A DNA stretch of 26,045 nt from Candidatus Iainarchaeum sp. (GTDB taxonomy: Archaea; Iainarchaeota; Iainarchaeia; Iainarchaeales; 0-14-0-20-34-12), in the NCBI GenBank assembly GCA_030649345.1, contig JAUSKK010000041.1:1-26045 (forward strand), given 5' to 3'. The translations under genes and the position numbers were made by a program. The notes below the pieces were generated by a model, which worked only from the letters and a program-made list of their open reading frames with translations, did not search any database and was not told where the DNA came from. This document shows, in pieces, positions 1,972-25,003 of the stretch; position 1 is the first letter of the stretch; every line of letters begins with the position of its first letter.

Positions 1972-2838
1972 TTATACGACTCCAATGGCTCCAATTTTGA
2001 TTAAACTGGCTCCGCCGGTGGCAAATCCTAAAATAGCTAAAAATAGTTTAATGAATCCTTTCAAGTTTTCGTCTTGAATGTCTTGATCAATGTAATGCAA
2101 AATTGCTACAATTAAGACTACTTTGACTACAATAAACAATGCTGGATTCACTCCTAAAATAAATGCACTGAGTGGATGTTGTTCTCCGTATCCTAAAAAT
2201 CCTACAGCCAAAAAAGTTGCTCCGCTGTCAATTACTTGTCCAGTTAAAGCTAAAATATTGAGTTTGTTTTCCAATACTTTTTTCTTTAAAACTTTTTGAA
2301 CCACGAACCAAGTAACAATAATGGTTACAGCAATAACTCCAACTGCTAATCCAAAATTAGTCCAATCCACAAATCGTGACAAAACATAAGCAAACAATAC
2401 TCCGCCAGTTAATAATCCAATTCCTGCAAAGATTGTGTGATATTTTTCTTTTCCAAATTTTAATCCAATTCCCAATCCAATTAAAGTCAATACTGCTGTA
2501 GCAAACCAGACTCCGGGTGTATGCGTCCAATAACCCAATTCAAATGGATTGACTGTTTGTTGAATGGTTGGATAAAACCAGCGAGCTGCATTGATTGCTC
2601 GTAAGCTTATTCCAAAAGCAATGTAGGGTAACAAAGCTAACATAAACTTGTAATCAAATTGAATTCCGCGCTTTTTTAATTGCGGGTATAAGACCCAAAA
2701 ACTCAAAATTAGTAAAATAATTCCATACGCTAAAGTATTCACGATATTGTATCCTTGCACGCTGGGGTCTGTTGCTGGTTTTACAAAACAATTTTCCCAG
2801 ATTCCCCCTTCTTGAAAAATACAATCATAGAATGTCAT
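1972..2838 (-). CDS. Polytopic integral membrane protein (DUF63-like archaeal family)
   Basis: 288 aa with about 8 hydrophobic segments. The N-terminal ...GYNIVNTLAYGIILL... and ...PYIAFGISLR... recall archaeal DUF63 proteins, but the family call is from memory only. Confidence 0.55.
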   Translation of the reverse strand: MTFYDCIFQEGGIWENCFVKPATDPSVQGYNIVNTLAYGIILLILSFWVLYPQLKKRGIQFDYKFMLALLPYIAFGISLRAINAARWFYPTIQQTVNPFELGYWTHTPGVWFATAVLTLIGLGIGLKFGKEKYHTIFAGIGLLTGGVLFAYVLSRFVDWTNFGLAVGVIAVTIIVTWFVVQKVLKKKVLENKLNILALTGQVIDSGATFLAVGFLGYGEQHPLSAFILGVNPALFIVVKVVLIVAILHYIDQDIQDENLKGFIKLFLAILGFATGGASLIKIGAIGVV

Positions 2839-2894
2839 GTATTAGTATTTTAAGGGTTTATTTTAAAAGAATGTGTATGGCGTCCATTCCTTCG

Positions 2895-3950
2895 ATGTGT
2901 GTTCCTAAAATCAAAGCAGAATCAGTAAAACAATTTTTAATTCAAAATAAGGTATTTCGATTTGGTGTTCGCCCGGATCATTCTCAAGATTTTGTTTTTT
3001 TTCCAATTACTCAAAAACTTTCTCCAATACTTTTATCTAAACTGAAAAAAAGTTCATCTAAAATCAAACAAAGCATGCATACATTTCCTGAAAAAGAACC
3101 TTTGCAGTCTTTAAATTTAAAAGATTCTTTGAAAAATCAATTATCTTCCGAAGAATTAAGTCATTTAATTTCTGCTTACGATATTGTGGGTTCGATTGCA
3201 GTTATTCAGGTTCCCAAAGAATTAATGAACCGAAAAAGTTTAATTGCAAAAACTGTCTTGAAAATTAATCATTCCATTCAAACAGTGTGTATGATTACTG
3301 GAGGCCATTCTGGAAAATATAGAATTCAGCCAGTTAAACTTTTGGCTGGAAAGAAAACAACCGAAACAGTTTACAAGGAACATAATTGTTTATTCAAAAT
3401 GGATATTGCCAAAGTATTTTTTTCTCCGCGCTTGAGTTTTGAGCGTGCCCGCATCAATGATTTAATTCAACCCAATGAAGTTATTGGCTCTTTTTTTTCC
3501 GGAGTTGGACCGTATTCTATTATTTTTGCAAAAAATTCAAATACTCAACGAGTTTACTCGGTTGAGTTAAATCCAAGCGCAGTCAAATATCATAAACTTA
3601 ACAATAAATTAAATAAAGTTGAAGAAAAAGTTGAATTATTAAAAGGAGATGTTCACAAAATTGTTCCAAAATATTTAAAAGGAACCTGTGATCGAATTGT
3701 AATGCCTTTACCGGAAACTGGAGAATTATTTTTAGACGAAGCTTTTGCTGCGCTTAAGCCTGAAGGTGGAATGATTCATTTTTACACTTTTGCGCCTAGA
3801 GCTGATTTGTATTCTCATGCAGTGTCTGAGCTTGAAAAAGTTGCAAAAAAGTTCAATCGAAAAATTAAGATTGTTCGAAACGAAATTTGCCGTACTTTTT
3901 CTGCTTCGGTTGTTCAAATTGTCTTGGATGTCAGTGTATCAGAACCTTAG
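2895..3950 (+). CDS. trm5: tRNA (guanine37-N1)-methyltransferase, Trm5 family
   Basis: ...FKMDIAKVFFSPRLSFERARI..., SAM motif ...FFSGVGPYSIIFAK..., ...VYSVELNP...N..., ...DRIVMPLPE... (NLP-like), ...HFYTF.... The track start at 2772 overlaps the divergent membrane gene. ATGs at 2871/2877/2895 are alternatives; 2895 (MCVPKIKAE...) fits a TATA-like TTTATTTTAAAA at about 2856-2868. Confidence 0.8.
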   Translation: MCVPKIKAESVKQFLIQNKVFRFGVRPDHSQDFVFFPITQKLSPILLSKLKKSSSKIKQSMHTFPEKEPLQSLNLKDSLKNQLSSEELSHLISAYDIVGSIAVIQVPKELMNRKSLIAKTVLKINHSIQTVCMITGGHSGKYRIQPVKLLAGKKTTETVYKEHNCLFKMDIAKVFFSPRLSFERARINDLIQPNEVIGSFFSGVGPYSIIFAKNSNTQRVYSVELNPSAVKYHKLNNKLNKVEEKVELLKGDVHKIVPKYLKGTCDRIVMPLPETGELFLDEAFAALKPEGGMIHFYTFAPRADLYSHAVSELEKVAKKFNRKIKIVRNEICRTFSASVVQIVLDVSVSEP

Positions 3951-3962
3951 GTTCCGATATAC

Positions 3963-4008
3963 TGCAAAACTCTAAGTTTTGCATATACATAAAATCTTTG
4001 ATTTTATG
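3963..4008. repeat. Double-hairpin intergenic module, copy A
   Basis: TGCAAAACT-cta-AGTTTTGCA (3963-3983) followed by CATAAAATC-ttt-GATTTTATG (3988-4008). The second hairpin is nearly identical to 25041-25061. Confidence 0.55.
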
Positions 4009-4020
4009 ATACCTCCTGAT

Positions 4021-4065
4021 AGACTATCTTCGCAATGCTTTGCATTGCTCGATAGTCTGTTTTTT
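4021..4065 (+). terminator. Hairpin plus T-run terminator downstream of trm5
   Basis: AGACTATC-ttc-GCAATGC-ttt-GCATTGC-tc-GATAGTCT (15 paired positions), followed by G and TTTTTT (4060-4065). Confidence 0.5.
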
Positions 4066-4091
4066 AAACAATTTCTTTCCTTGATTTTGGT

Positions 4092-4748
4092 ATGCCGTTG
4101 AATTTAGTGTTTATTGGTCCTCCGGGTGCAGGTAAAGGAACAGTTGCAGGAATGGTTGCCCGAGAATGGCAAATCCCTCATTTAAGTACTGGAGAAATGC
4201 TGCGTTCTGAAATAGCCAAAGCTTCTGCTTTAGGAAAGTTTGTTCAGTCCATTGTAGCTTCCGGCGGTTTAGTGGATGATCAGACTGTTTCTCAAATTGT
4301 AGAACAACGCATCAAAGAACAAGATTGTTTACAGGGATTTATTTTGGATGGTTTTCCAAGAAATGTTCAGCAGGCTATTATCTTAGATGGTTTATTGGCT
4401 GCGCATGAAAAAAATGTTTCTGCTGCTGTTTTGTTTTTTATTCCAGAAGAAGCTTTAGTCAAGCGTTTGTCTGGCCGAAGATATTGCCCAAAATGTTCTA
4501 GAACGTACAATATGTATACTCCTGAACTAATGCCAAAAAAAGATTCCGTCTGCAATGACTGCGGTGTTATCTTACAACAACGAGCCGATGACAGGTCAGA
4601 ATCTGTTCGCAAGCGTTTGCATATTTACAATACTCATATTGCGCCTTTGTTGAAATTTTATCAAGAAAAAAATTTATTGCTGCAATTAAAAGCCGATGGC
4701 TCAATTCAAGAAAATGTTTCCAGGCTGAAAGAATTATTAAAACATTAA
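4092..4748 (+). CDS. adk: Adenylate kinase, long bacterial type with Zn-binding lid
   Basis: P-loop GPPGAGKGT, ...GFILDGFPRNVQQA..., and lid CPKC...CNDC. 218 aa. Confidence 0.95.
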   Translation: MPLNLVFIGPPGAGKGTVAGMVAREWQIPHLSTGEMLRSEIAKASALGKFVQSIVASGGLVDDQTVSQIVEQRIKEQDCLQGFILDGFPRNVQQAIILDGLLAAHEKNVSAAVLFFIPEEALVKRLSGRRYCPKCSRTYNMYTPELMPKKDSVCNDCGVILQQRADDRSESVRKRLHIYNTHIAPLLKFYQEKNLLLQLKADGSIQENVSRLKELLKH

Positions 4749-14549: not shown

Positions 14550-14635
14550 AGTAATAAATTTCTTCAATTCCTTAATTAATCTATGGTTGCAAATGAATGA
14601 TGTCAAATTAATATATTGTGAATACAAAAGATAGT

Positions 14636-15751
14636 ATGCATCATTCATTTGAACGAATTGTTTTGCATTTGGATTTGAATTATTTTTTTGCCCAAGCCGA
14701 AGAATTAAGAAAACCTGAATTGAAATGCAAACCAGTGGTTGTCTGTGTTTACTCGGGCCGCACTCCTACTTCTGGTGCTGTAGGCACTTCCAATTATCTT
14801 GCACGTGCTTTAGGCATTAAGTCAGGCCAACCTATTTTTCAAGCCCAGCAAAAAGCTACTCCAGAAACTGTTTTTTTGCCAGTAGATATTCAATACTATA
14901 AAATTATTTCCATTCAAGTAATGGAAATTTTAAAATCACACTCAGATTCTTTTGAGTCTGGGGGTGTAGATGAAGCGTTTATTGAAATCACGCAAGCATG
15001 CAAAGGAAATTACAAGAAAGCCAAAGAACTGGCTGAAGAAATCAAAAAAGATTTATTGCAAAAAACTGGGTTAATTTGCAGTATTGGAATTGCACCCAAT
15101 AAACTGTTGGCCAAAATTGCTTCAGATTTTCAAAAACCAGATGGTTTAACTATCCTTGAACCTTTTCAAGTTCAAAAATTTATCAATCCTTTATCTGTGA
15201 GTGTTATTTCAGGAATTGGTCCCAAAACAGCTGAACACTTGAAAGAATTGCATGTTGAAAAAGTTTCTGAGCTGGCAAAACTGCAAAAAAGTGTTTTAAT
15301 TCAAGAATTCGGAAATGCCAAAGGAGACTTTTTGTTCCAAGCAGCTCAAGGTCTAGATGAAAGTCCAGTTCAAGAAAGTTCTGAACACCAGCAGTTTTCT
15401 CGTATGACTACTTTGAAAAAAGATTCTAAAAATTTAACTGAACTTATCGAAGTTTCAATTCCTTTAATGAACGAATTATGTGCCCGCTGTCAAAAAGAAA
15501 ACATTTTCTTCAAAACCATTTCCATTGTTTTAGTCTCAACTAAACTAGAATCGTTTACTAAAGCCAAAACTGTCCTTGCACCAACCCACGATTTGAAAAT
15601 TTTTCAACAAACTGTACAATCTCTTTTTTCTGACTTTTTAAAATTGCACACAGATTTTACTGCCCGCAGATTGGGCATTTCAGTTTCTCATTTTTCAAGT
15701 TCTTTTAAACCTTCACTTTCAGAAAAACAACGTACATTAAACGAATTTTAA
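14636..15751 (+). CDS. dinB: Y-family DNA polymerase IV (Dpo4/DinB)
   Basis: ...IVLHLDLNYFFAQAEE..., ...GGVDEAFIE..., ...SIGIAPNKLLAKIASDFQKPDG..., ...ISGIGPKTAEHL.... ATG 14636 is preferred over the track's GTG at 14618. Confidence 0.9.
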   Translation: MHHSFERIVLHLDLNYFFAQAEELRKPELKCKPVVVCVYSGRTPTSGAVGTSNYLARALGIKSGQPIFQAQQKATPETVFLPVDIQYYKIISIQVMEILKSHSDSFESGGVDEAFIEITQACKGNYKKAKELAEEIKKDLLQKTGLICSIGIAPNKLLAKIASDFQKPDGLTILEPFQVQKFINPLSVSVISGIGPKTAEHLKELHVEKVSELAKLQKSVLIQEFGNAKGDFLFQAAQGLDESPVQESSEHQQFSRMTTLKKDSKNLTELIEVSIPLMNELCARCQKENIFFKTISIVLVSTKLESFTKAKTVLAPTHDLKIFQQTVQSLFSDFLKLHTDFTARRLGISVSHFSSSFKPSLSEKQRTLNEF

Positions 15752-15799: not shown

Positions 15800-16456
15800 A
15801 TGGTTCAATCTTCTTTAGCTCCAGTTGTTGTTTTAATAGGCCGTGCTGCTTCCGGTAAAACTACTTCAGCAGAAACTTTAGCTCGAAAAAGTCCAGTTCC
15901 AGTGGTTGTTTTTGGCGGCTTTATTCGAAAAGAAATTGAAGAAAATACTCTAATTGGCCAGAAAGCCATGGCGGGTTTGAAAACCCAAGGTTTTGTTCCA
16001 ACTGAAATTTACATGAATTATATTAATAATTTAATTCAAGCCAATCCTGCAAAATTTAGAAATGGTTTTATTGTAGAAGCTTTTCCCAGGAGTGTTTTTC
16101 AAGTTCCTGAATTTGAGAAATTTTTGCGCAGTAAAGGAATGAGAATTGCACATGTTTTTTTGTTTAATGTTTCTAAAAAAACCAGTGCTCGAAGACTGCA
16201 AACTCGTGCAAAACAAACTGGACGAGAAGATGTTTTGCCAGTAGAACAAAGACAAGCTTTGTTTGACCAGCATGCCGGTCGTTTGCTGGCTGAATTTGGA
16301 ACCAAAGGTATGGTCTCTGTAGTTAATTCCAATCATTTGCCTATCCGCAGAATGACTAACTTTTTTTTAGCACGCCATAAAGCACGCGTTCGTACTGTTC
16401 GAAAAAGTAAGCTTAGAATTATTCGTCCGCGTATTCCTCGTTTGCCTAGAAGATAA
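15800..16456 (+). CDS. Divergent short-type adenylate/NMP-kinase-like protein with an Arg-rich C-terminal tail
   Basis: ...VVVLIGRAASGKTTSAE... (degenerate P-loop), ...GFIVEAFPRSVFQ... (compare GFILDGFPR in adk), no Zn lid. The C-terminus is RRMTNFFLARHKARVRTVRKSKLRIIRPRIPRLPRR. Confidence 0.7.
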   Translation: MVQSSLAPVVVLIGRAASGKTTSAETLARKSPVPVVVFGGFIRKEIEENTLIGQKAMAGLKTQGFVPTEIYMNYINNLIQANPAKFRNGFIVEAFPRSVFQVPEFEKFLRSKGMRIAHVFLFNVSKKTSARRLQTRAKQTGREDVLPVEQRQALFDQHAGRLLAEFGTKGMVSVVNSNHLPIRRMTNFFLARHKARVRTVRKSKLRIIRPRIPRLPRR

Positions 16457-19077: not shown

Positions 19078-20118
19078 TCATTTTCCTTTTTTGTTCTTTT
19101 TAATCATTTCCCATACTGTTTTATTGTTTTTTAGGTTAACGTAATCTTCTTTTTCTTCTTTGATTTCAGTCACAATAAATTTTGGTTTCACTTTTCGAAT
19201 TCCTTGAATGATCTTACTTAATTCTAAATCTCCTTCAATATGTCCATCCATACTCTTTCCTTTGAATAACCTATTTTCGTAACTGCAGTTGTTTAAATGC
19301 ACTTGTTTGAGTTTTCCTTTTCGCTGAATTAATTTTAACCAGCGAATAACTTCTTGGGTTGTTTTTTCTTTTTTAGTTTCTTTTTGTTTTAGTAATTTTG
19401 TTTCCATTGTTTGTTCTTCCAGCCCAAAATATACTGGTTTCCAGCCTAAATAGGAATTGACTCGGGCTTGATGTGAATTAAATGTTTTTTGTTTTTCTTG
19501 ATCTAACAATGTTCGCAGTGTTAATCCTGCGTGTGCAATATCTAAAGTAGTATTTGTTTTTAGTTGAATGAAATCTTGAGGTAATTTTCCAATTTCGTGA
19601 AATGTTGTAAATGTTCCAGGCGGGTTGGGTATTTCGAGTAAAGGGATATTTTCCAGTACAATTTTCTTTTTTCCAATTTCGTTCAAAAATTCCCTGAATT
19701 CACTTAAAAGTTCCATTTTGTTTCGTTCATACGAGACAAAATTATTGCTTTCAATTTTTCGCATATCTCCAGTTAAATGAATATTTAAATGTTCAAATCC
19801 AATTTTTTCCAATAATTCAATTGCTGTTTGAATACTTTCTCTGCTTTGTTTTCTTATTTTAGAATTTTGCGATAAAACATCCAAAATAGTTTCGTTATTC
19901 AAAGTCCAGCCAATTTCTGCACTCAAAACAGGAAATAACCCATCCAAGTAATTCAAATAGTCTGTTTTTAATGCATGCAAAATTTTTTCTTTGGTTGGAT
20001 GTGAAATCTCAAACAATACTTCCACTCCGCCAATCAGTTCTTTCTTAACATTTTCTGCTTGGGCCGCTAATTGCCGTTTGTTTAGAATGCATTTTCCCAA
20101 TAATTTTGTTTTCGTCAT
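19078..20118 (-). CDS. Xylose-isomerase-like / AP-endonuclease-2 TIM-barrel family protein
   Basis: The spacing of ...LNIHLTG..., ...IVLENIP..., ...LDIAHAG..., ...VHLNNC...DGHIEGDL... fits the metal-ligand pattern of the PF01261-type TIM barrel. There is a Lys/Glu-rich insertion, and the C-terminus is Lys-rich. I prefer the start at ATG 20118 (MTKTKLL) because it avoids overlap with the upstream gene. Confidence 0.6.
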   Translation of the reverse strand: MTKTKLLGKCILNKRQLAAQAENVKKELIGGVEVLFEISHPTKEKILHALKTDYLNYLDGLFPVLSAEIGWTLNNETILDVLSQNSKIRKQSRESIQTAIELLEKIGFEHLNIHLTGDMRKIESNNFVSYERNKMELLSEFREFLNEIGKKKIVLENIPLLEIPNPPGTFTTFHEIGKLPQDFIQLKTNTTLDIAHAGLTLRTLLDQEKQKTFNSHQARVNSYLGWKPVYFGLEEQTMETKLLKQKETKKEKTTQEVIRWLKLIQRKGKLKQVHLNNCSYENRLFKGKSMDGHIEGDLELSKIIQGIRKVKPKFIVTEIKEEKEDYVNLKNNKTVWEMIKKNKKGK

Positions 20119-20122
20119 TTTT

Positions 20123-20665
20123 TCACAAATACGTTGGATTTTTTTCTGCAATTTTTTTTCGATGATTGGCCAATCTTGCCAATTGAAAGAATACGCTGGA
20201 TAGTCTATTAATGTATTTTAATAATTCCGAGTTTAATTTTTCTTTTTCGTTTAATTCCACAATTTTTCGCTCTACTCTTCTGCATACTGTTCTGCAAACT
20301 TGCATCCGCGTACTTAACTCTGTTCCTTGAGGTAAAATAAATTTGGTTAATTCTCCAACTTCAGTTCCAATAGAATCGCAAATATTTTCTAGTTCCTGCA
20401 CGTGTTTGTCCAAAATTTTGTGTTTGCTTTCTTCTGGATTCGCCAATTCCGCACTTGCAATAAATAACTGATTTTGTATTTTTTCCAATATTTCTTGAAT
20501 ACCCTCAAATTCTCCAGCTGAACTTAAAGCCCATCCAGTGAATGAGTTTAATTCATCGATTTCTCCATAGGCTTGAATTCGTACATCTTCTTTTCCTACT
20601 TGTTGGCCGTTGCAGTATCTTGTTTTTCCCTGGTCTCCTGCACGTGTATACATCTTTTGCTCCAT
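20123..20665 (-). CDS. PduO-type ATP:cob(I)alamin adenosyltransferase family protein
   Basis: MYTRAGDQGKTRY..., ...RIQAYGEIDELNS..., ...LQNQLFIASAELA..., ...FILPQG...CRTVCRRVER..., ...YINRLSS..F.LAR... is the classic PduO/MMAB signature. Confidence 0.9.
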   Translation of the reverse strand: MEQKMYTRAGDQGKTRYCNGQQVGKEDVRIQAYGEIDELNSFTGWALSSAGEFEGIQEILEKIQNQLFIASAELANPEESKHKILDKHVQELENICDSIGTEVGELTKFILPQGTELSTRMQVCRTVCRRVERKIVELNEKEKLNSELLKYINRLSSVFFQLARLANHRKKIAEKNPTYL

Positions 20666-20726
20666 TTCAATCCCTTTTTAATCCTATATTTTTATGTTAT
20701 TGATGTATTAAATTCGTGTATATTCT

Positions 20727-21056
20727 ATGCTTAAACCTAAATCTGGAAAAAAGAGTTTTTTAATTGAATTTTTTGGCAAAGAATGTCCTTATTGTGTCAA
20801 AATGCAGCCTTTAATTCAGCGTTTGGAAAAAGAAACTGGTTTGAAAATTAAGCAATTTGAGGTTTGGTACAATCAAGACAACCATAAAAAATTCAATGAA
20901 TATGCGCACATTTTCATAGATGCCTGCGGCGGTCAGTTAGGGGTTCCGGCTTTTTATAATTCAAAGACTGGAGAAGCTTTATGCGGTGCAGTTGATTATG
21001 AAATTTTGAAAGAATGGGCCATAAAGAAAAATACCCCTCCTTCGTATGTGAGTTAA
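20727..21056 (+). CDS. Thioredoxin-fold / glutaredoxin-like protein (CPYC active site)
   Basis: 109 aa with ...FFGKECPYCVKMQP... and a later ...GVPAF... (cis-Pro loop). Confidence 0.7.
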   Translation: MLKPKSGKKSFLIEFFGKECPYCVKMQPLIQRLEKETGLKIKQFEVWYNQDNHKKFNEYAHIFIDACGGQLGVPAFYNSKTGEALCGAVDYEILKEWAIKKNTPPSYVS

Positions 21057-21057
21057 A

Positions 21058-21720
21058 ATGCAGGAATCTCAAAGAATTCAAAAACTGGTTTCAGTTTTAA
21101 ACAAAACGTATGCTTCTCAGAAATTAGGTTTGCGTCGTTCTAATCCAATTCAACTTTTGGTTGCAGTCATTCTGTCTGCGCAGTGTACAGACATTCGTGT
21201 CAATCAAGTGACTGAATCTTTGTTCAAAAAGTACAAGACTGCAAAAGATTTTGCTTCAGCTAATTCGAAAATTTTTGAAAAAGAAATTTTTTCCACAGGG
21301 TTTTATAAAAATAAAGCTAAAAATATTCGAGCTGCCTGCAAAATCATCTATGAACAGCATAACGGAAAACTTCCGAACACAATGCCTGAACTATTAAACT
21401 TTCCGGGTGTTGCCCGAAAAACTGCCAATGTTGTTTTGGGTGAAGTGTTTGGCCAAGTCGAAGGCTTTGTAGTAGATACACATGTGAAACGCTTATCTCA
21501 AAGAATGGGTTTAACTCAAAATGTTAATCCGGAAAAAATTGAAAAAGATTTAATGCAAAAAATTTCTCCAAAAGACTGGTGGAATTTTTCAACTGCTTTA
21601 ATTTTGCATGGCCGTAAAATATGTCAGGCCCGTAAGCCTCGTTGTCTTGAGTGTCCGGTTCAAAAATTGTGCCCCAGTGCAGTTGTGTTTTTTCCTGAAC
21701 TTAAATTAGCCAAACAGTAA
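21058..21720 (+). CDS. nth: Endonuclease III (HhH-GPD DNA glycosylase/AP lyase with 4Fe-4S cluster)
   Basis: ...LLVAVILSAQCTD..VN..., HhH ...LLNFPGVARKTANVVL..., ...VVDTHVKR..., and the cluster C-x6-C-x2-C-x5-C (CQARKPRCLECPVQKLC). Confidence 0.92.
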   Translation: MQESQRIQKLVSVLNKTYASQKLGLRRSNPIQLLVAVILSAQCTDIRVNQVTESLFKKYKTAKDFASANSKIFEKEIFSTGFYKNKAKNIRAACKIIYEQHNGKLPNTMPELLNFPGVARKTANVVLGEVFGQVEGFVVDTHVKRLSQRMGLTQNVNPEKIEKDLMQKISPKDWWNFSTALILHGRKICQARKPRCLECPVQKLCPSAVVFFPELKLAKQ

Positions 21721-22986
21721 TTTGAGAATGGTTTTAGGTTTTATAAACTCTTGGGCAACTCTGTAATCTTTTTGCATTCTGGAGCTGATTTTAATTAAAT
21801 CTTTATTGGTTCGTGCTTTTTTTACAACCCAATCAAATATTTTTTCATGCAATATTAAAAATTCTAACCATTGAAATCCTCTAATTTCCGGTTCTAAAAT
21901 TTTCCATAATTGTTGATCATATTCATTCAAGCTTTGCTCGCTAAAATCATTTCGATCCAATGCACGAACAATAGTTTGTGCTGCAATTTTTCCAGTTCGC
22001 ATGCTGGGTCCAACTCCTTCTCCGCTAAAAGTCATGGCAAAGGTTCCGGCATCTCCAACCAAGACAAATCCTGAGCCAGAACATTTCCTTTGTTTGCCTA
22101 AAACACTTAATCCCCATTGTTTTACTTCTGTAACTTGTTTTGCATTCTTGAATCGTTCCTTGAATTTTTTGCTTTCAATCACTTCTTTTAATTTGTTTTC
22201 TAGCTGAATGTTTTTTCGTTCAATATCTTCCAATCGCATTCCCACTCCTACATTGCACCAATTTTGGTCTACTGGAAAAATCCAAAAATATCCTGGGCAA
22301 ATCCCTTTCAAATAATACAGTTCGCACATCCCGAGAGCGGGATGGCGGCTCGTAGTGCTTTCGCGTTGCTTCAGCACTACTTCCATGGGTCCTTGTACAT
22401 TTTCAAAATATGCTCTGGCATTCACTGCATATCTTCCTTTAATTTTTGAGCTTAATCCAACACTATTTGCAATTACGCTTTGGCTTCCATCCGCTCCTAC
22501 AATTACTTTCCCAAATTGTTCTTCTGTTTTTCCTTGCTCGTTTCTGAATTGTACTCCCATCATTTGTTTTTCTTTAAACAAAGGTTTCAAAACAATGCAT
22601 TGTTCTCTGATTGTAATGTTTTTTTCTTTTTTGCAAGCTTCCATTAAAAAATTGTCAAATGCTTCTCTGCGTACATTAAACCAAGTGTCTTTTTCTTGAA
22701 TATCTTTTTCCAATAAGGGCGTGTAAATGGTATGCCCTGAAGGCGATCCAATTAGTACTCCGTGAATTTCTTTTTTGGGTAATTTTTCAAATTCATTCCA
22801 AAGTCCCAATTCTTTTACAATATCCAAGCATTTCCATGTTTTATTGTCTGCACAGATTTTGTCTCTGGGGAATTTTTCTTTATCCAATAATAAAACTCTT
22901 TTCCCTGCTTTTCCTAGAAATAGTGCTGTGGTTGTTCCAGCTGGTCCTGCTCCGCAAACAATTGCATCAAATTCAAAATTAGGCAT
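21706..22986 (-). CDS. Geranylgeranyl reductase family FAD-dependent oxidoreductase (digeranylgeranylglycerophospholipid reductase-like)
   Basis: FDAIVCGAGPAGTTTALFLGKAGKRVLLLDK (GxGxxG), ...VIVGADGSQS..., ...CPGYFWIFP...NVGVG..., ...LVGDAG.... It carries an atypical GC-rich insertion (see 22327..22380). Confidence 0.9.
   Translation of the reverse strand: MPNFEFDAIVCGAGPAGTTTALFLGKAGKRVLLLDKEKFPRDKICADNKTWKCLDIVKELGLWNEFEKLPKKEIHGVLIGSPSGHTIYTPLLEKDIQEKDTWFNVRREAFDNFLMEACKKEKNITIREQCIVLKPLFKEKQMMGVQFRNEQGKTEEQFGKVIVGADGSQSVIANSVGLSSKIKGRYAVNARAYFENVQGPMEVVLKQRESTTSRHPALGMCELYYLKGICPGYFWIFPVDQNWCNVGVGMRLEDIERKNIQLENKLKEVIESKKFKERFKNAKQVTEVKQWGLSVLGKQRKCSGSGFVLVGDAGTFAMTFSGEGVGPSMRTGKIAAQTIVRALDRNDFSEQSLNEYDQQLWKILEPEIRGFQWLEFLILHEKIFDWVVKKARTNKDLIKISSRMQKDYRVAQEFIKPKTILKLLFG
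22327..22380. other. GC-rich, doubly palindromic in-frame patch inside the reductase gene
   Basis: CATCCCG-agag-CGGGATG (22327-22344) and GTAGTGCT-13 nt-AGCACTAC (22352-22380). The patch encodes ...VVLKQRESTTSRHPALGM... with G/C-ending codons (CTG, AAG, CGC, AGC, ACG, CCC, CTC, GGG) that are unusual in this window. Confidence 0.6.
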
Positions 22987-23015
22987 TATTTATCTTTAAT
23001 GAACTGATTTAAATT

Positions 23016-23150
23016 TCATTCCGATTTGCCGGGTTCTTCAGCGCAATCGCAGGTATATCCACATTCTGGGCAAATGATTTTGCATTGTACTTCAATGATA
23101 TTTGGACTTCCGCAGATTTCGCATTTTTTGGGCTTATCTAATTCCGGCAT
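23016..23150 (-). CDS. 44-aa zinc-ribbon protein (below the ORF-track size cutoff)
   Basis: Manual translation gives MPELDKPKKCEICGSPNIIEVQCKIICPECGYTCDCAEEPGKSE*. It has two CxxC pairs (CEIC, CPEC) plus three further Cys, an ATG start and a TGA stop. It lies between the 58-aa membrane ORF and the reductase gene on the same strand, with a TTAAATTATA-like box about 20 nt upstream. Confidence 0.6.
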   Translation of the reverse strand: MPELDKPKKCEICGSPNIIEVQCKIICPECGYTCDCAEEPGKSE

Positions 23151-23207
23151 TATACATAGCCTTAGAACTATAATTTAAGCTTTCAAAGTAAGGATTTTGA
23201 ACTTTTT

Positions 23208-23384
23208 TCACAGTTTTATTATAATTCCAGTAATCCAAGCATATCCTAGTATTATTCCAAATCCTAAGGGTGAAAAAAAGCTTTCTGCAAAAATGGCGAT
23301 TCCGTAACCTGTTCCAAATTCAGCCAGTAAATATAAAACAAAAATTGCTGTAAGTGCAGTTAAAAATAATTGAATTAAATTCAT
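23208..23384 (-). CDS. 58-aa two-helix membrane protein (below the ORF-track size cutoff)
   Basis: Manual translation gives MNLIQLFLTALTAIFVLYLLAEFGTGYGIAIFAESFFSPLGFGIILGYAWITGIIIKL*. The ATG directly abuts the TAA of the upstream gene (TAAATG), and GGAGGA (23391-23396, minus strand) lies 6 nt upstream. Confidence 0.5.
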   Translation of the reverse strand: MNLIQLFLTALTAIFVLYLLAEFGTGYGIAIFAESFFSPLGFGIILGYAWITGIIIKL

Positions 23385-23753
23385 TTAAATTCCTCCTAAA
23401 AATAAATTGTAAAAGCAAACTAAAACCAAAAATCGAATTGTGGTAATTAAAGGAATTTTTCCGCGTAATTTTTCCATATCTTCTGTTACAATGGTTAATG
23501 CTGTTTGGCTTAACATTTCCAAAGTCAAAAATGTGCCAGTTAAATACATCCATCCAGTACTTGTCATTACATCTTGTTCCAATGTCAATAGTACAAATAC
23601 AGCCATGGATGCATAGATCCAAGTTTTTCCTTCCCATAAATAAAACGCCAAAGCCGCAAACATAAATAACCATAAAAAATTGCTTATAGTGTAATTCAAA
23701 AGCCAGCCTAAATCCAATCCAATCAAATGAATGAAAAACTCCACAAAAACCAT
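23385..23753 (-). CDS. Small integral membrane protein, paralogue of 9001..9360
   Basis: See 9001..9360 for the alignment. I prefer the start at ATG 23753 (MVFVEFFIHLIGLDLG...) over the track's GTG at 23762, because the N-terminus is then colinear with MIEEVLLNVLNLNIG.... Confidence 0.65.
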   Translation of the reverse strand: MVFVEFFIHLIGLDLGWLLNYTISNFLWLFMFAALAFYLWEGKTWIYASMAVFVLLTLEQDVMTSTGWMYLTGTFLTLEMLSQTALTIVTEDMEKLRGKIPLITTIRFLVLVCFYNLFLGGI

Positions 23754-23837
23754 GTTATTCACTTTACTCCGTTCTATTAATACTAATTTTCTGAATTAAT
23801 AAGACTTTTAATTAATTTTTGCGCTTTTTAGCTAATG

Positions 23838-23845
23838 TTTAAATA
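23838..23845 (+). promoter_or_regulatory. TATA box of the tandem Lrp-like regulator gene (leaderless mRNA)
   Basis: TTTAAATA within GTTTAAATACT. 24 nt separate the box from ATG 23870. The 10-nt core TTTAAATACT is the same as at 9434. Confidence 0.55.
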
Positions 23846-23869
23846 CTTTTTTAGTCATATTTCTTAATT

Positions 23870-25003
23870 ATGGCAAAGAAAATACGTTTAACTAAAAGTG
23901 CAATCCAGCCTTTGGCTGACTGGAAAGCTTTAGCTAATTTGGATGTCAAAGACCGTAAGTTGTTGTGGTTTTTGTCTAAAAATTATCGTTTGCCATATAC
24001 TTTTTTGGCAGAACAAATTGGTTTGTCGAAAGATTCTGTAAAGTATAGAATTCAAAAATTGGAGCAAGCTGGTTTGATTTTGTCGAAAACATTTTTAGTA
24101 AATCCTGTTTGGATTGGCCATGAATATGTGACTGTTTTTTTAAGTTTTCAAAATTTGACTATGGAAAAAGAACAATCTTTGGTTCAGTTTTTTTTGAATC
24201 ATCCAGCTACCAATATTGTTTATCGTCTTGCTGGAAAATGGCAGATTTGGTGGGGTATTGATGCTCGCGATTTAATTGAATTGGATGAATTTTTGAATGA
24301 TTGCAAAATTGCCTGTGGGACTTACTTGAAAGAATACGAGATTTTGCCGGCATCCAAAGAATACAAATGGGCTAATTTAATTCCAGCTATAACTCAAGAC
24401 TTAAATTTAGGGCCTTTAATGTATTCCAAGAACGATTTTTCGTTTGAAAAAGATATTTTATCATCTCCTCCTTTGGAACTGCGCCACGGTCAAGGAATTG
24501 CTTTAACTTCAATTGAATTAGACTTAATTTCAGCTTTAAATGAAAACTCAAACATTACTGCAGATCAGCTTTGTGTTCAATTAAATTTGTCGAAAGATAC
24601 TGTTCGAAAATTGATTCAAAAACTAATTTACAGCGGAGCGGCGAATGCCTTTTGGCCTTTTTTTAATTATAAAAAACTTGGTTTGGAAACGTACGTTATG
24701 TGCATTAAATTAAAATATTTGAATGAATCTTGGGATCAAAAATTAACCAAATTTATTCAAAATCATCCTTGGATTCGAATGGGTGTAAAAGTGATTGGAT
24801 CTTGGGATGTCTTGCTGGAAATTCCTTGCAAAAATACTGCACATTTTTATGAATTATTGGATGAATTTCGCGAAGAATTCAGTGAAATTATTCAAACCTA
24901 CGAATCGTTTCCGATTGCAGACTACTTGTACTTTAATGCAACTCGTGCTTTGATTAACAATGAACGCAGGCCCAAACAGTCTTGGCTTCAACCCAAACTT
25001 TAA
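23870..25003 (+). CDS. Transcriptional regulator with two tandem Lrp/AsnC-like modules (wHTH + small alpha/beta domain, twice)
   Basis: Module 1: LDVKDRKLLWFLSKNYRLPYTFLAEQIGLSKDSVKYRIQKLEQAGLI.... Module 2: LTSIELDLISALNENSNITADQLCVQLNLSKDTVRKLIQKLIYSGA.... Each is followed by about 80 aa with a RAM-like pattern (...YVTVFL..., ...YVMCIKL...). Confidence 0.7.
   Translation: MAKKIRLTKSAIQPLADWKALANLDVKDRKLLWFLSKNYRLPYTFLAEQIGLSKDSVKYRIQKLEQAGLILSKTFLVNPVWIGHEYVTVFLSFQNLTMEKEQSLVQFFLNHPATNIVYRLAGKWQIWWGIDARDLIELDEFLNDCKIACGTYLKEYEILPASKEYKWANLIPAITQDLNLGPLMYSKNDFSFEKDILSSPPLELRHGQGIALTSIELDLISALNENSNITADQLCVQLNLSKDTVRKLIQKLIYSGAANAFWPFFNYKKLGLETYVMCIKLKYLNESWDQKLTKFIQNHPWIRMGVKVIGSWDVLLEIPCKNTAHFYELLDEFREEFSEIIQTYESFPIADYLYFNATRALINNERRPKQSWLQPKL

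Follow-up and report, generated by a model that had tools for sequence, protein, structure and literature searches.

How does a short stretch of GC-rich, palindromic DNA come to lie inside the reading frame of an enzyme gene in an AT-rich archaeon, and what becomes of it there? The question is raised by a contig of 26,045 nucleotides (nt) from Candidatus Iainarchaeum sp. (JAUSKK010000041.1 of assembly GCA_030649345.1), analysed at its full length and called the window below, in which a minus-strand gene for a geranylgeranyl reductase (GGR) family flavoprotein of 426 residues (21706-22986) carries such a patch at 22327-22380. An earlier interpretation of the letters alone, referred to here as the sequence-only reading, had drawn attention to this patch and proposed either a mobile origin or a role as an RNA signal. 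With a confidence only somewhat above even, we favour a genuine and recent insertion, in frame, of foreign DNA that forms hairpins and is read through as a disordered loop on the protein surface; its likeliest source would be a small palindromic selfish element. Some 51-54 nt of such DNA would have entered the GGR gene of this AT-rich DPANN archaeon recently and in this lineage specifically; as the length of the insert is a multiple of three and it brings in no in-frame stop, it would simply be transcribed and translated, adding a disordered loop of 17 residues and leaving the rest of the enzyme intact. The donor, in such a scheme, would be a non-autonomous element of double-hairpin form.

An in-frame insertion in the geranylgeranyl reductase gene

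On sequence and fold the host gene is a member of the GGR family. Its product scores 167.2 bits against TIGR02032 (cut-off 158.8), matches FAD_binding_3 of Pfam and reaches 31.4 against GGR_cat (cut-off 27), and the closest solved structure, by sequence as well as by fold, is the GGR of Thermoplasma acidophilum (PDB 3OZ2; template modelling scores 0.77/0.82, Foldseek E = 7e-29). What we take to be the hallmarks of the family, as seen in the Thermoplasma and Sulfolobus GGR structures, are the GxGxxG motif that binds flavin adenine dinucleotide (FAD), a conserved cysteine near the flavin and YxWxFPx7-8GxG; in the window protein they correspond to GAGPAG at residues 12-17, Cys45, and Y233-F-W-I-F-P238 followed by eight residues and G247-V-G249. 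Since all columns that are invariant among the homologues are kept, the gene looks functional and not decaying.

Within this conserved background one segment stands alone. In an alignment of 29 homologues the peptide VVLKQRESTTSRHPALG is found between GPME and MCELYYL in the window protein only. From the RAY to the PGY motif, 117 of 120 homologues (35-69% identity) count 26 residues and two count 27, the figure of 43 being reached only here; this near-constant length indicates that the site is not an indel hotspot, and the insert is missing from all 119 other homologues. Homologue comparison and codon-level alignment place the in-frame insertion on the minus strand at 22330-22380, as 51 nt that form codons 203-219. 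Codon by codon, the alignment with P0002/L002, which at 69% identity in the multiple alignment is the nearest homologue, leaves a clean 51-nt gap, and under a pure-insertion model its boundaries cannot slide. The sequence-only reading had deduced a frame-preserving insertion from a comparison with the Thermoplasma GGR, given as about 17 residues shorter in this segment. The figure was roughly right, the window protein being about 15-16 residues longer than 3OZ2 in an HMMER alignment, and the deduction is strongly supported: aligning the orthologues confirmed the indel, and the result is the opposite of a homologous segment conserved among them.

The insertion is real on present evidence. A contig of 4953 nt (L001) from the Logan assembly of run SRR13727527 is identical to positions 19253-24205 of the window, insert included, and this agreement between two assemblies is to be read with the proviso that both contigs may derive from the same reads.

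The DNA of the patch is built of the following parts, for which no strand is assigned. Read on the plus strand, positions 22327-22344 are CATCCCG/AGAG/CGGGATG, a hairpin (A) with a perfect 7-bp stem and a 4-nt loop; a 7-nt spacer, GCGGCTC (22345-22351, 86% GC), separates it from a second hairpin (B) at 22352-22380, GTAGTGCT/TTCGCGTTGCTTC/AGCACTAC, in which a perfect 8-bp stem encloses a loop of 13 nt. Each hairpin is self-contained and unrelated to the other, and together they cover 47 of the 54 nt, so that the original description of a GC-rich patch of about 54 nt with two perfect stems is borne out by the sequence. Four of the six reading frames are open across the patch. Hairpin A also carries a head-to-head GGATG/CATCC, which we take to be a FokI-type type IIS recognition sequence and which is probably incidental.

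The hairpins and the insertion do not coincide exactly. Read as mRNA, hairpin B and the insertion share their 5' end exactly, whereas the outer three base pairs of hairpin A are formed with the ATG of Met220, outside the 51 inserted nucleotides. Folds of both strands and direct inspection of the sequence further extend hairpin A to 22324-22346 by two G-C pairs (22324-22325 with 22345-22346), with a 1-nt bulge at 22326 in between, and these extra pairs join the conserved codon of Cys221 to a codon of the insert.

Composition, folding and position in the protein

The foreign composition of the insert is strongly supported. The GC content of the patch is 61%, against a window mean of 34% (standard deviation 6.9% for 54-mers), and the patch is the stretch of highest GC in the window at all widths tested between 30 and 70 nt. 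Elsewhere in the window, GC-rich spots code for conserved motifs rich in glycine or proline and lack palindromes. In the 17 codons of the insert, third-position GC reaches 65%, compared with 26% in the open reading frames (ORFs) of the window, in agreement with the earlier remark that its G/C-ending codons are rare elsewhere. Its codon adaptation, expressed as mean log relative adaptiveness, is the lowest among 7177 windows of 17 codons, although by a small margin (-1.07 against -1.03 for the next distinct window). The sliding profiles thus place the GC maximum and, narrowly, the codon-adaptation minimum at the patch. The unpaired bases of loops and spacer have a GC content as high as that of the stems, and consequently selection for base pairing alone does not account for the composition; a recent acquisition without amelioration would be the simplest reading. 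That the insertion is recent is suggested by third-position GC, which appears not to have been ameliorated, unpaired positions included.

The patch is also outstanding in its capacity to fold. Among 60-nt segments of the window none folds more stably on either strand: it reaches -28 to -29 kcal/mol, where the mean is -7 with a standard deviation of 3.5. A 74-nt fold gave z-scores of -3.7 (mRNA sense) and -2.9 (plus strand). The minimum free energy of the 54-mer, -22.8 kcal/mol, was matched by 34 of 5000 mononucleotide shuffles, by 63 of 5000 codon-order shuffles and by 10 of 5000 synonymous recodings, the patch being more stable than 99.8% of the latter; comparison with shuffled controls, which had been suggested when the patch was first noticed, therefore finds it significantly more stable. 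When the same 54 nt were shuffled, two non-overlapping perfect stems of at least 7 bp each arose in 2 of 60000 cases. Perfect 7-bp hairpins that stand side by side are not unusual in the AT-rich 26-kb window, where six such pairs were counted, but this pair is the only GC-rich one.

At the level of the protein, an AlphaFold2 model built on the 29-sequence alignment has a mean predicted local distance difference test (pLDDT) of 88.9 and a predicted template modelling score of 0.89. The pLDDT falls to about 50 over residues 201-220 and below 50 at residues 207-216, and the 17 residues are placed in this low-confidence loop, between the strands 186-195 and 220-224 and 12 residues upstream of the PGYFWIFP motif. 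According to the model, the insert probably forms a disordered surface loop between two beta strands.

Where the insert may have come from

The proposal of the sequence-only reading, that a mobile element resembling the Rickettsia palindromic elements (RPEs) had been captured, stays plausible rather than demonstrated, as the searches brought up no second copy and the insert shows neither terminal inverted repeats nor a clear duplication of the target site. Several results have to be set against such an origin. In the first place, five base pairs of hairpin A use flank codons (Met220 and Cys221) that were present before the insertion, which would be odd for an element with fixed ends that landed at a random site. 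The inserted unit may have been at least 54 nt long and have replaced a codon, the palindrome may have been built in part by strand-switch copying of local sequence, or the match may be coincidental; all three are possible. In the second place, the insert lacks terminal inverted repeats, its ends (GTAGTGCT... / ...CGGGATG) not being reverse complements, and there is no convincing target-site duplication. A direct repeat, ATG...ATG, 57 nt apart, was considered as such a duplication and rejected, for the segment before insertion would then have been two residues shorter than in 117 of the 120 homologues. Likewise, no transposase or other mobile-element gene occurs among the window ORFs of at least 90 residues.

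In the third place, no further copy came to light in the collections covered. The contig of the window itself has no match in any of the DNA collections searched, which means that the source genome is not in them; of that genome the search covered the 26-kb contig. Within it, a search for both hairpins with up to three mismatches returned no second copy, and k-mers of 9-12 nt shared nothing above chance with the remaining sequence, the longest shared one being 10 nt, with no repeat of 11 nt or more. A strict pattern (CATCCCGN4CGGGATGN{4,10}GTAGTGCT) and a stem-only pattern (TCCCGN4CGGGAN{7,13}AGTGCTN{11,15}AGCACT) had no match in 185,579 GTDB species representatives or in IMG/VR, and blastn against plasmids, phages and E. 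coli genomes gave nothing meaningful. In four related genomes, about 75 kb surrounding the GGR genes contain no comparable GC-rich hairpin patch.

Two sets of candidate matches were examined and rejected. In JGI metagenomes the strict pattern returned four partial matches; these lie in GC-rich genes, three of them are mutually homologous, they lack the second arm AGCACTAC, and their identity outside the forced positions is about 33%, as by chance. An exhaustive search of 1.84 billion protein representatives, which are clustered at 50% identity and can hide insert-bearing proteins, found the peptide shared by none except P0121, a protein of 366 residues with five tandem repeats of LHSGLQAQRPIVSTSRHDALGLCQ (...STSRHDALGLCQL...) that resemble TSRHPALGMCEL, the sequence spanning the junction between insert and flank. 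This match is taken as chance, because five weakly similar copies of a 13-mer inflate the score and because the match enters the conserved GGR flank.

The strength of the favoured reading differs between its parts. The insertion, the foreign make-up of its DNA, the two hairpins, the place in a loop and the occurrence in two assemblies are shown; recency and translation by read-through are inferred. That the insert belongs to a mobile, repeated family is the weakest part, doubtful if a serious prospect, and we would put somewhat lower the probability that the patch is one copy of an undescribed family of GC-rich double-hairpin selfish elements of about 54 nt which may insert in frame into DPANN coding genes. 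Such a family would be the archaeal equivalent of the RPEs and of the mitochondrial GC clusters or double-hairpin elements, and would supply essential enzymes with new loops at their surface.

The explanation that survives best beside a selfish element, improbable though we judge it, is a one-off event with no element family behind it, in which foreign DNA served as filler in the repair of a double-strand break or palindromes were built by template switching during replication. The hairpins would then come from the donor, for instance from a palindromic site in a GC-richer host, virus or neighbour, or from strand-switch copying. Such an event would leave no further copy in the window, the GTDB representatives or IMG/VR, and neither terminal inverted repeats, a target-site duplication nor a transposase, which is what was observed. 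Moreover, the pairing of hairpin A with the flank codons (ATG, and GC of TGC) is exactly what strand-switch synthesis on a local template would give, and it is this completion of the hairpin by the flank that keeps a non-mobile origin alive. Nevertheless, the rest of the insert finds neither donor nor template in the window, the longest shared k-mer being at chance level; template switching on AT-rich local DNA leaves 61% GC unexplained; and two unrelated perfect hairpins over 47 of 54 nt are not expected of random filler, as the shuffles indicate.

A second alternative, which we regard as unlikely, is that the double hairpin is a selected structure of mRNA or DNA that acts in cis on GGR expression, the peptide being a by-product. 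It might, for instance, make the ribosome pause between the FAD-binding and the catalytic part, govern how stable the transcript is or how it is processed, or offer a binding site to a protein or an antisense RNA. The stability of the fold relative to synonymous recodings of the same peptide, its rank as the most stable of the window on both strands, and stems that are perfect despite strong AT mutation pressure would all suit such a role. On the other hand, the structure is confined to a single lineage, so that it has no conservation or covariation to support it, and 119 homologues function without it. There is no Rfam match at gathering level in the window and nothing relevant at E<=10 in 22280-22430; no tRNA gene was found either. 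Unpaired positions match the stems in GC content, as would be more in keeping with a recent foreign origin than with selection on structure alone, and the fold is equally good on both strands, as expected of DNA palindromes and not specifically of an RNA signal. The RNA-signal proposal of the sequence-only reading thus stays plausible rather than demonstrated: the fold is significantly stable, but no orthologue carries the insert and Rfam offers no match.

Still less probable is an artefact, that is, a chimeric read, an assembly error or a minority variant joined into the contig, with a real gene that has no insert. The foreign composition, the origin of the sequence from one sample only and the possible sharing of reads between the two contigs would be compatible with it. 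However, the two different assemblies are identical over 4953 nt across the site; an insert that counts exactly 51 nt, keeps the frame, holds no stop and falls in a loop that joins two strands points to filtering by selection and not to random chimerism; and no similarity was seen to the adapter sequences that were compared, nor to E. coli.

Finally, it is very improbable that the segment is lost or skipped when the gene is expressed, whether the tRNA splicing endonuclease cuts it out as an archaeal bulge-helix-bulge (BHB) intron or the ribosome passes over it by translational bypass (hop/byp): a GC-rich hairpin segment of 51-57 nt in AT-rich coding sequence does recall byp elements and the gap of T4 gene 60 (PMC8211752), and AUG codons (Met201 and Met220) stand 57 nt apart on the two sides of the insert, but both processes were tested and are not supported, as a scan of 250 nt of mRNA for two 3-nt bulges and a 4-bp helix found none at or near 22380/22330, no stop follows any possible take-off codon (the first AUG is followed by GAA), codons 51 nt apart mismatch (GAA vs GGG, AUG vs CUC), a hop from AUG to AUG would give a segment with two residues fewer than in 117 of the 120 homologues, and with the insert open in frame nothing forces its removal.

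Genomic setting, known parallels and meaning

The named homologues of the window GGR come from Diapherotrites/Iainarchaeota and Micrarchaeota, which identifies the organism as a DPANN archaeon, and the setting is an archaeal chromosome with housekeeping genes of DPANN type. Neighbouring genes encode Trm5/TYW2, adenylate kinase, S-adenosylhomocysteine hydrolase, a KaiC-like ATPase, ScpA and a Y-family polymerase, and further CoaBC, endonuclease III, an Lrp/AsnC regulator and HisIE. The endonuclease III gene (plus strand, 21058-21720) is convergent with the GGR gene, their 3' ends overlapping by 15 nt (21706-21720). The DNA polymerase, of the Y-family impB/DinB type, is encoded at 14618-15751 on the plus strand, and the window holds two adenylate-kinase-like genes (4092-4748 and 15800-16456, plus strand).

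In related DPANN genomes the GGR gene adjoins a bacterial-type cluster for isoprenoid synthesis by the methylerythritol phosphate (MEP) route (L002, 8222-11218; L008, 8820-9833 and 12458-19631), with genes for DXS, DXR, IspD, IspF, GcpE and LytB; the neighbours of the window GGR differ. Archaea normally take the mevalonate route, and an MEP cluster is unusual among them. In another related genome (L009, 1-3636) a ribonucleotide reductase gene contains two intein/LAGLIDADG insertions. Essential genes of this lineage do harbour selfish elements, although of another kind.

The second most structured place of the window lies at 3933-4065 on the plus strand, in the gap that separates the genes for Trm5/TYW2 (2772-3950) and adenylate kinase (4092-4748). 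Four consecutive near-perfect hairpins (3933-3962, 3963-3983, 3988-4008 and 4018-4062, the last of them nested) are followed there by a run of six T, and the RNA fold of 3915-4085 reaches -56.6 kcal/mol with a z-score of -8.7. Unlike the GGR patch this array is AT-rich, and its matches in Rfam are only sub-threshold; conceivable readings of it are a structured non-coding RNA, a region of processing or termination and an array of hairpin elements.

Among known systems, the RPEs come to mind first, which Ogata et al. 2000 reportedly described in protein-coding genes. They are in-frame insertions, resembling transposable elements of the miniature inverted-repeat type (MITEs), in many such genes (PMC10969869). 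The resemblance of the GGR insert to them lies in palindromic hairpin DNA that keeps the frame of a housekeeping gene, in a genome that is small, AT-rich and host-dependent, and that is translated with the host protein, contains no stops and is located at a structurally tolerant site. In contrast, RPEs measure about 100-150 bp, are bacterial, encode a conserved family peptide and are multi-copy, with 44 insertions in R. conorii, whereas the archaeal insert has 51-54 nt and a single known copy, stands far above the genome in GC content and is made up of two short perfect hairpins that are unrelated to each other. It also departs from a classical MITE, having neither terminal inverted repeats nor a target-site duplication.

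In size, composition contrast and two-hairpin architecture the closest match is found in mitochondria, where hairpin, double-hairpin and GC-cluster elements occur in coding regions and stay in the transcripts (PMC2800124, PMC4478555). Like the GGR insert, the GC clusters, the double-hairpin elements of Allomyces and the repetitive hairpin-forming elements are tens of nucleotides long and GC-rich in an AT-rich genome, and lie sometimes inside protein and rRNA genes. These elements are, however, organellar, abundant and mostly intergenic, and their mobility is known from comparison of populations, while the GGR insert resides on an archaeal chromosome and no repeat copies of it were found. Hairpin inserts of about 50 nt in coding sequence are likewise seen in the hop of T4 gene 60 and in the mitochondrial byps of Magnusiomyces, the latter GC-rich in AT-rich genes (PMC8211752). 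What bypass requires is a take-off codon with a stop and a hairpin after it, together with a landing triplet that matches (PMC8211752); the GGR insert has no stop after a take-off codon and no matching landing triplet, and is open in frame.

The last comparison is with archaeal BHB introns, to which the insert is similar as a short intervening sequence in an archaeal protein gene. Introns of this kind are known from archaeal protein genes such as cbf5 of Crenarchaeota. The junctions of the GGR insert, however, carry no BHB motif, and both of its hairpins lie inside it. Repetition, the defining feature of the Rickettsia and mitochondrial families, was not found for the insert in the window or in the public collections, and it is therefore described as working like them and not as a member.

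What the insertion means depends on its origin. If it were only a one-off capture it would be a curiosity. Nevertheless, as a single event it would still be a clean case of a foreign loop of 17 residues tolerated at a site where the length of GGR is otherwise invariant, of use for enzyme engineering and as a strain marker. If, instead, a repeated family is behind it, the colonisation of genes in frame by hairpin-forming selfish DNA, documented until now chiefly from Rickettsia and from AT-rich mitochondria, would extend to archaea, and the GGR of this organism would be a natural example of how reduced, host-dependent genomes gain protein loops.

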